Shown here: positions 6,833 to 26,202 of the stretch, piece by piece
Position numbering within the stretch: the stretch's first letter is position 1
How the letters are laid out: each line of letters opens with the position of its first letter
DNA from: Eledone cirrhosa
Lineage: Eukaryota
Direction: 5' to 3'
Assembly: GCA_964016885.1 (NCBI GenBank)
Contig: CAXHJY010000963.1
Coordinates: 1 to 64,000, forward strand
Length of the DNA: 64,000 nucleotides
Notes under the pieces: generated by a model
Told to the model about the DNA's origin: nothing
Database searches by the model: none
Seen by the model: the letters and a program-made list of their open reading frames with translations, nothing else
Translations under genes and position numbers: made by a program

Positions 6833-6925
6833 ACGTGTCTGAGGAACTTGCGAATCCAGAGTCAGGTTCGAACCACGAACAGATCGCACCTCGATCTGTT
6901 CGCCGGAGAAACAATTGTAATACGT
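6833..6925 (+). ncRNA. Type I hammerhead ribozyme (family C) with 62-nt stem II domain
   Basis: acgtgt CTGAGGA [6846-6907] GAAA caattg TA atacgt. Stem I 6 bp; palindromic stem III ACAAUUGU; internal hairpin cgaacagatcg/cgatctgttcg. Confidence 0.85.
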
Positions 6926-23030: not shown

Positions 23031-23085
23031 ACAAATATTCCAGAGTCGGGCTAGATCGATACAGATCGAACCTTGAGCTGATCAA

Positions 23086-23403: not shown

Positions 23404-23406
<3 letters not shown>

Positions 23407-23795
23407 AATATTAAAACAATGAAATTAAACAAAAAAACGGTTAATTCATAGTAAAACTCATTATTTTACGATCGTTTCTGGGGGGTAGTTCCCTGTATGT
23501 CCATTCAATTATTGATCTATGTAAAATATATTACAAAATATCATAGTAAGAAAATATACATACGTCTTCACTACTCGCCGTCTTCAGAAATAAAGATTAT
23601 CTCTGAAGACGGCGGGTAGTGAAGACGTATGTATATTTTCTTACAATGATATTTTGTAATATATTTTACATAGATCAATAATAAAATGGACATACGGGGA
23701 ACTACCCCCCCCCCCCCCCCAGAAACGATCGTAAAATAATGAGTTTTACTATGAATTAACCGTTTTTTGTTTGATTTCATTGTTTTACTATTTCT
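23404..23795. repeat. About 190-bp-arm inverted repeat made of two head-to-head HHR family D modules
   Basis: Arms 23404-23593 and 23597-23795. Confidence 0.95.
23596..23740 (+). ncRNA. Type I hammerhead ribozyme (family D) with 112-nt stem II; mirror copy on the minus strand at 23460-23593
   Basis: attatct CTGAAGA [gggtagt...cgtatgt...acatacg...actaccc] GAAA cgatcg TA aaataat; palindromic stem III. Confidence 0.8.
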
Positions 23796-23966
23796 ATTTT
23801 TGACTCTGTATCTAATGAATTATATCGTTGAAAATTTTGTATTTTAAACTTTGCTTCACGACATCTACATACGGATTACATTGAGTTCTTCATACGGTTT
23901 AGACCCTACCATTAATTGGTGTATTTATCTGTGTATATATGTATATATATAATATGCTACTGGTAA

Positions 23967-26166: not shown

Positions 26167-26202
26167 TCTTCTGATGAAGGACTAGCGTCCGAAATGTTAA
26201 GA
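26167..26202 (+). ncRNA. Minimal type I hammerhead ribozyme (family G)
   Basis: tctt CTGATGA a ggac tagc gtcc GAAA tg TT aaga. Stem III is probably ACGU decayed at the CpG. Confidence 0.8.

Follow-up and report, generated by a model that had tools for sequence, protein, structure and literature searches.

The window analyzed here, a 64,000-nucleotide stretch of an Eledone cirrhosa contig (CAXHJY010000963.1), contains truncated pseudo-LTRs (pLTRs) of Penelope-like elements (PLEs) that carry a type I hammerhead motif with an arm of ~100 nt. In the reading that we favor with moderate confidence, partly by analogy with published relatives, this hammerhead is likely to be under selection and likely to cleave slowly, and only when its palindromes pair. 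PLE hammerheads are known, and what appears to be new is the stem II architecture of ~100 nt: full-text literature searches returned no hammerhead with a stem II near that length, the PLE variants of Lunse et al. 2017 lying outside the comparison.

Hammerhead copies in the window

A first-pass annotation had placed a constant hammerhead motif at 23603 (+), 23587 (-), and 27475 (-), and all three copies, CTGAAGA...GAAACGATCGTA, are there; a gapped long-arm hammerhead pattern matched three times in the window and not once in 100 dinucleotide shuffles. The spacers between the core halves CUGAAGA and GAAA measure 112 nt (23603), 102 nt (23587), and 101 nt (27475), in agreement with the claim that stem II exceeds 100 nt, and the folding z-scores of the three are -3.4, -0.8, and -4.3, respectively. 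Rfam gave no match at gathering score across the window, and no hammerhead is among the 150 listed of 162 weak matches between 20000 and 31000. No remnant of a PLE ORF was found in the window. The features are as follows.

23597..23933, + strand: 5'-truncated PLE pseudo-LTR copy of subfamily D1 plus the 3' tail, whose last stretch is a (TA)n/(TG)n run
23603..23733, + strand: hammerhead with CUGAAGA core, 112-nt stem II, GAAA, and palindrome ACGAUCGU; predicted cut after A23733
23873..23897, + strand: conserved tail motif GGATTACATTGAGTTCTTCATACGG downstream of the hammerhead, common to D1, D2, and D4
23404..23593, - strand: inverted, 5'-truncated second copy of the D1 pLTR end, head to head with the + copy
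23467..23587, - strand: hammerhead core whose stem II measures 102 nt; cut predicted after A23467
27292..27484, - strand: solo 5'-truncated pLTR end of subfamily D2 with a complete hammerhead, ending in (TA)n

The + copy aligns to the pLTR-to-5'UTR region of a full-length element (L064) up to TTTATC, and its ends are identical to those at other D1 loci; the feature had earlier been closed at 23795 and has to be extended to ~23933. Part of its tail motif (TTGAGTTCTTCA) also occurs in family E. The C run in stem II of the 23603 hammerhead has grown to 16. The inverted arms, 23480-23593 and 23597-23710, are 95% complementary over 114 nt, and the stem I 5' strand is truncated at the inversion junction in both the 23603 and the 23587 hammerheads, so that the AU-rich stem I, described earlier as constant, is not constant in these two copies. 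Their modelled stem I probabilities are 0.00 (23603) and 0.02 (23587), compared to 0.67-1.0 in six other copies. Since read-through RNA from either strand is predicted to form a hairpin of ~190 bp (-295 and -288 kcal/mol for the two strands), both copies are predicted to be inactive, and the inverted pair at 23404-23933 is probably the dead by-product of an inverted insertion. The 27475 hammerhead has a 9-bp stem I, a 101-nt stem II with an (AU)n basal helix, and a predicted cut after A27356.

The window holds other hammerheads as well. A second long-stem family is present at 6839 (+) and 27788 (-), with a partial copy near 23040-23082; its stem II spans 62-65 nt and has A·A at the base, and its palindrome is ACAAUUGU or ACAUAUGU. 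A tight pattern for it has 401 genome matches, and no PLE ORF was found within ~1.5 kb upstream at 25 loci. Shorter hammerheads of other families lie at 26171 (+) and 84 (-), with stems II of 13 nt and 35 nt. Between ~14000 and 20000, ~6 kb are almost pure purine on the + strand, with an AT skew of 0.90-0.98.

Genome-wide copies and the host element

The annotation had proposed a genome search with a relaxed descriptor, and this search recovered the motif in abundance: CTGANGA-N(90-118)-GAAACGATCGT has 12,759 matches in the 3.0-Gb genome, compared to 10 for the reversed pattern, a total that takes in the related family E, some family F copies (via a TGA run), and a few spurious matches. A 17-mer taken from the 3' core has 7,065 occurrences (control, 0), family F has 1,057 matches, and D1, the subfamily of the window pair, has 194 exact matches to a 26-nt pattern. 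From the 17-mer matches the first 30 were taken, chosen on the 3' core only and including some that are the two halves of one inverted pair. The 5' core lies 99-108 nt upstream in 24 of these copies, and a matching 5' core is missing in the other 6, mostly via truncation or rearrangement. All 24 two-core copies retain 8 or more of the 9 basal pairs of stem II, and 23 of them 6 or more of the 7 bp of stem I. Most of the copy sets in this work were chosen by core patterns, and most search patterns included the palindrome. Copies of family D occur singly, as inverted pairs, or on either side of an ORF, and the length of stem II stays near 95-116 nt despite slippage-prone repeats.

Upstream of one hammerhead copy lies a GIY-YIG-like frame, whose protein was used to choose 30 further loci. 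Both core halves, 99-105 nt apart, lie downstream on the same strand at 24 of them; the others comprise one internal deletion, two loci with the 3' half only, and three without a hammerhead. The full-length L064 has the order pLTR-ORF-pLTR with one hammerhead per repeat. In a second element (L123:4996-7925 and L239:2460-2874) an 813-aa ORF without stops lies between 415-bp repeats that are 100% identical, and this element is apparently very young and intact. Its 3' hammerhead is ~3.7 kb past the end of the ORF, across sequence that is microsatellite-rich in the part read; the hammerheads are 4.2 kb apart in L064 and 6.7 kb apart in L123/L239, the 3' regions being rich in microsatellites.

By motif search, the 813-aa ORF encodes an RT followed by a GIY-YIG endonuclease at the C terminus (FDIDNYY, YRDD, VYKC...YIGAT), with RWR at residue 37, DKT at 115, CNCRNKTNC at 673, CRLCSQE at 771, and SKRQELIISCNH at 790. 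The linker has CxCX5C, there are CxxC and CxH around the E and N residues, and CCHH is absent by eye. RWK, DKT, CxCX5C, CxxC, CxH, and the lack of CCHH are traits of the Hydra clade (PMC8557442). Pfam found no significant domain in the ORF, and 118 relatives, mostly without a name, are 31-48% identical. Judged from its sequence, the element is Penelope-like with Hydra-clade protein motifs. The layout of that clade is also present, i.e., pLTR direct repeats, inversions, a tail, and (TA)n insertion, and two of its descriptive traits, a canonical short hammerhead and a length generally <3 kb, are lacking. D1 lies downstream of related endonuclease ORFs at 8 of 30 D1 loci (56-68% identity over the main segments), and one D1 locus carries the ORF N terminus at 71-72% identity; relative to the D2 protein, F frames are 51-76% and D4 frames 79-89% identical. 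Other PLE-like RT/GIY-YIG fragments with different Cys/His patterns (L020, L026, L029, and L063) adjoin family D copies.

Of 155 distinct 3' flanks, 75 run into a simple repeat 40-99 nt beyond the cut site and have no tail motif; a longer tail is present in 53, and 27 end elsewhere. The two types of 3' end fit both of the reverse-transcription starts described for an Anolis PLE (PMC11167929). The ATG of the ORF lies 338-354 nt downstream of the predicted cut site.

Other identities were considered and set aside. D copies are not the non-coding head-to-tail tandem units of a non-LTR retrozyme, only the related family E being tandem. A SECIS element has a UGAN/NGAN quartet and ~11-12 nt to the AA loop; here UGAU/AGAU is present with a spacing of ~7 nt, and the L123 ORF has no in-frame TGA that would recall a Naiad selenoprotein. 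Both the SECIS and a K-turn reading of UGAU/AGAU were ruled out on spacing, by eye. The only match of a metagenome scan lies inside an apparent coding sequence (z score of -0.72) and was put down to chance.

Family E itself has a 95-nt stem II with U·U at the base and 359 matches. It occurs as tandem pairs ~720 bp apart (L235, L236, and L237) with TTGAGTTCTTCA downstream; next to one tandem pair there is a Hydra-like RT frame in inverted orientation, and no linked PLE ORF was found at 25 loci.

Stem II architecture and the ribozyme core

Stem II pairs were counted inward from the two core halves, in register and without alignment, in place of a MAFFT alignment of 28 copies that misaligned the basal helix. 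The count covers 137 distinct copies (25 D1, 62 D2, 8 D3, 17 D4, and 25 F), for which the script required a loose four-base stem II start and intact core halves. All five subfamilies share one plan at the base of stem II: a C·A mismatch, 2 bp, a C·C or C·U mismatch, and a long helix. Position 1 is C·A in 131 of the 137 copies; position 2 holds G-C, A-U, or G·U, depending on the subfamily, and position 3 holds G-C; at position 4 there is C·C or C·U, which leaves it unpaired in every copy. Positions 5-11 are paired in 60-62 of 62 D2, 16-17 of 17 D4, 7-8 of 8 D3, 23-25 of 25 F, and 16-24 of 25 D1 copies. The minimum free energy fold closes the stem II base in 135 of 137 copies, and median folding z-scores lie between -2.6 and -7.0, individual copies reaching +0.5. 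Neither of the two fixed mismatches, nor the identity of the motif as the pLTR hammerhead of a PLE, was part of the first-pass annotation.

That annotation had proposed that the base of stem II differs among copies while pairing is kept, and the helices that it quoted are present. Its stronger proposal, wholesale compensatory replacement, holds for the basal helix, of which a third sequence version has come to light: GGGUAGU/ACUACCC in D1, AUAUAUA/UAUAUAU in D2-D4, and UGRUGAU with its partner in F. Swapping arms gives -10.5 to -13.8 kcal/mol within a subfamily and -2.1 to -6.9 kcal/mol between D1, F, and D2-4, with the proviso that (AU)n arms pair mutually in a trivial fashion. Only the basal helix has been replaced, since the second helix, GUAUGU/ACAUAC, is common to D1-D4 and the distal motif, TGATA-TTTGTA...TACATAGATC, shows almost no variation across the 28 aligned copies. 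In the window the second helices, cgtatgt/acatacg and ggtatgt/acatacc, have six base pairs in common and differ by one C-G/G-C flip. The idea that the whole of stem II was built from different low-complexity sequence finds no support here, the distal motif being nearly invariant across subfamilies. Because the distal motif hardly varies, distal pairing is unsupported by covariation. Stem II has no terminal loop near the core, and the position-4 mismatch could serve as a tertiary contact to stem I. Several further hammerhead families of this genome, with 27-79 nt stems II (L014, L039, L097, L121, L011, L038, and others), also have a fourth-position mismatch, often C·C or U·C, ahead of a longer helix; across families this position may be a shared tertiary-contact site.

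How much of this arm is itself selected is the question on which the strongest alternative turns. The core may be a functional PLE hammerhead and the long stem II a tolerated passenger produced by local duplication and template switching, with only closure of the base selected, a reading to which we give somewhat less than an even chance. Template switching can change both stem arms at once, the families of this genome have stems II that grade continuously from 12 to 116 nt, the D4 arm holds an internal 10-nt duplication, and the 95-nt arm of family E has a different predicted fold. A passenger would not, however, be expected to keep the distal TGATA-TTTGTA...TACATAGATC nearly invariant where the subfamily proteins are only ~51-85% identical, nor to hold its length at ~95-116 nt; furthermore, copying from one arm to the other would erase the C·A and C·C mismatches, and these persist.

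The core has the type I order CUGANGA ... GAAA ... NUH or its U3-A8 covariant, with A15.1-U16.1 and a short palindromic stem III of the dimer type. The palindrome ACGAUCGU is kept, as had been noted, and its duplex is worth -10.0 kcal/mol. Family F has UUGANAA instead of CUGANGA (C3-G8 to U3-A8); when positions 3, 7, and 8 were left free, U3 was found in 100 of 100 and A8 in 98 of 100 matches listed of 951, and in a hand count of the same 100, N7 was A in 61, C in 36, and U in 3. The cleavage triplet is GUU in D4 and GUA in D1, D2, D3, and F. The core swap in F supports selection for ribozyme function, and U3-A8, the free N7, and GUA/GUU are changes that a working hammerhead tolerates and are, indirectly, the best sign of catalysis. 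Covariation analysis, also proposed earlier, gave a divided answer. Stem I and pair 10.2 have 26 two-sided-change cells on alignment A1, a count that is reached in 0 of 500 shuffles (slid controls, 3-12) and is inflated by kinship among the copies. Five subfamilies in one genome are few independent events, and two of the four shuffle-tested measures, those based on pairs or types, did not reach significance (175/500 and 425/500). The long-stem-II structure is real and abundant, and it is likely to be selected.

A very common SINE is inserted at a single fixed site of the stem I 5' strand, with 534 exact junctions (L150-L169; L064:7312-7398), with target duplications that vary in length, sometimes twice in a row; downstream of the insertion, stem I and the core are intact. 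The SINE is not dedicated to this site: the junctions are 534 of 152,727 SINE ends, or 0.35%, which points to a hot spot and not a dedicated target.

It is also conceivable, though in our view unlikely, that the motif does not cleave and is kept as a pLTR RNA structure or DNA promoter element, with its core locked in another helix. C·A takes the place of the consensus G10.1-C11.1 pair in 131 of 137 copies, and A11.1 permits a competing helix, UUCUG/YAGAA, that ties up the core. This helix was chosen by RNAalifold on a sequence-only MAFFT alignment of 28 copies, where stem I and the basal helix were not recovered, and it is favored in some single folds: of the eight copies modelled, two give it a probability of 0.87-0.96, another 0.62, and the other five 0-0.29. 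In the model, keeping the core open costs 1.4-4.8 kcal/mol. The genomic copies continue beyond the cut site, and PLE hammerheads that have been tested are very slow (PMC4209133). On the other side, the coupled U3-A8 with N7 free, the GUA/GUU choice at H17, the changes on both sides of stem I, and the retention of the palindrome are all in keeping with the constraints of catalysis. C·A stands at the same place in the PLE-X1_cBra hammerhead (PMC8557442, File S2), and the G10.1-C11.1 pair is a consensus and not obligatory: the PLE descriptor (PMC4209133) permits extra N10/N11 nucleotides, and a natural U-U mismatch has been reported.

Proposed mechanism and relation to known hammerheads

In the favored reading of a slow, palindrome-dependent hammerhead, whose dimer, protein-help, and cut steps are drawn by analogy with tested PLE hammerheads, two hammerheads, from one pLTR-ORF-pLTR transcript or from two RNAs, would form an 8-bp intermolecular stem III. 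The 2-bp stem III would be too weak alone, and pairing through ACGAUCGU would give a double hammerhead, its formation probably aided by the element's own protein. The cut would fall after GUA or GUU, ~340-355 nt upstream of the ORF start, and in the 5' pLTR it would leave an RNA that starts 338-354 nt before the ATG. The template for reverse transcription would be the uncut RNA, since genomic copies run past the cut site. The most speculative step is that the nearly invariant distal loop of the long arm would serve as a protein-docking site. PLE hammerheads act as dimers (PMC4209133, PMC6765202), and other PLE motifs cleave slowly even so (PMC4209133). For the Anolis PLE, cleavage is apparently protein assisted, hammerhead mutants were without effect on in vitro insertion, and no reads end at the cut site (PMC11167929).

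A more ambitious proposal, which we regard as doubtful, is that stem II is a dedicated domain whose distal loop binds the RT-endonuclease, unites two hammerheads, and switches cleavage on, with C·C replacing loop II as the contact to stem I; such hammerheads would form a widespread class and could explain PLE lineages such as Naiads, for which only "half cores" are reported.

About equally improbable is a role for stem II as a splicing switch. GUAUGU would be the donor of a 5'-UTR intron that ends AG/TTGAGCTC ~40 nt before the ATG; folding would hide the donor, and splicing would remove the 3' half of the ribozyme. The donor context is AG/GTATGT in D2-D4, AC/GTATGT in D1, and GTAAAT in F; AG/TTGAGCTC precedes the ATG in three of four full-length 5' ends; both copies checked have six upstream ATGs in the stretch from the cut site to the ORF; and 5'-UTR introns overlap the pLTR in Penelope and Chlamys-3_cRei (PMC8557442). 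The predicted D2-D4 junction is nevertheless found in 0 genomic copies, even though introns tend to be retained in PLEs; the AG is missing from L064, no donor of this kind occurs in family E, and pairing also explains the conservation of GUAUGU. Contigs of four runs, of unknown kind and so not evidence on expression, contain no GT..AG joint at the proposed intron.

The closest published counterparts are the Hydra-clade PLE hammerheads (PMC8557442, File S2), which are likewise type I and lie in the pLTR or close to the 3' end of elements with a C-terminal endonuclease (EN+) and (TA)n insertion, and which have a short palindromic stem III and often an unpaired nucleotide on each side of the stem II base. 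Their listed stem II, Hydra-1_oBim included, is 3-7 bp with a loop of 3-10 nt, whereas here it spans 95-116 nt in several helices with fixed C·A and C·C mismatches and includes a U3-A8 subfamily. The stem III motif of the present family was not found in the text of the Craig et al. 2021 supplement (PMC8557442), in which long runs are cut. The minimal PLE hammerheads and Schistosoma Cercyon, which has U3-A8 (PMC4209133), share the pLTR site, the dimer-type stem III, and the U3-A8 covariation, and pairs on opposite strands 100-700 bp apart also occur there; they differ in a helix II of 7-8 bp and a highly conserved G10.1-C11.1, and their descriptor excludes family D. Non-canonical longer stems II are listed for PLE-X1_sMoe, PLE-X1_sTam, and PLE-X1_cBra, with loops of ~29-35 nt that are the longest PLE stem II regions in File S2 (PMC8557442), and in PLE-X1_cBra, C and A flank stem II as they do here. 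These elements are plant or algal and EN negative, with arms about half as long or less and no long multi-helix arm described in that file. "Long helix II" in PMC13725137 means 6-8 bp. The discontinuous mammalian Clec2 hammerhead (PMC6155905) also has a core split by a long insertion, of 150-1500 nt, but it is type III, with the insertion in helix I and in a host 3' UTR, compared to type I, stem II, and a retroelement here. The PAc Poseidon hammerhead (Frangieh et al. 2024, PMC11167929) shares the pLTR site and a tail beyond the pLTR, and its use of uncut RNA as template and apparently protein-assisted cleavage are what we propose here; in PAc Poseidon, the ORF starts at stem II and the cut falls 26 nt past the start codon, whereas here the ATG is 338-354 nt downstream.

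The earlier suggestion that length-limited searches would overlook these ribozymes is borne out by published limits, which are far below ~100 nt: the Cervera 2014 descriptor allows a stem of 3-7 bp and a loop of 3-10 nt (PMC4209133), and the Craig 2021 core search a spacer of 7-17 nt, with half cores noted at 35-50 nt (PMC8557442). Hammerheads may merely parasitize PLEs, and they have been reported absent from Naiads on the basis of searches with 7-17 nt spacers (PMC8557442). With >12,000 copies missed by short-spacer rules in this genome, calls of hammerhead absence in PLEs hinge on the length limit. The family also presents microsatellite-like sequence kept at a fixed length as a helix beside a hammerhead core. 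The young, intact element and its natural variants (three basal helices, U3-A8, and GUA/GUU) are ready test constructs, and if the dedicated-domain proposal is true, long-armed hammerheads would be a widespread class that short-spacer descriptors miss.
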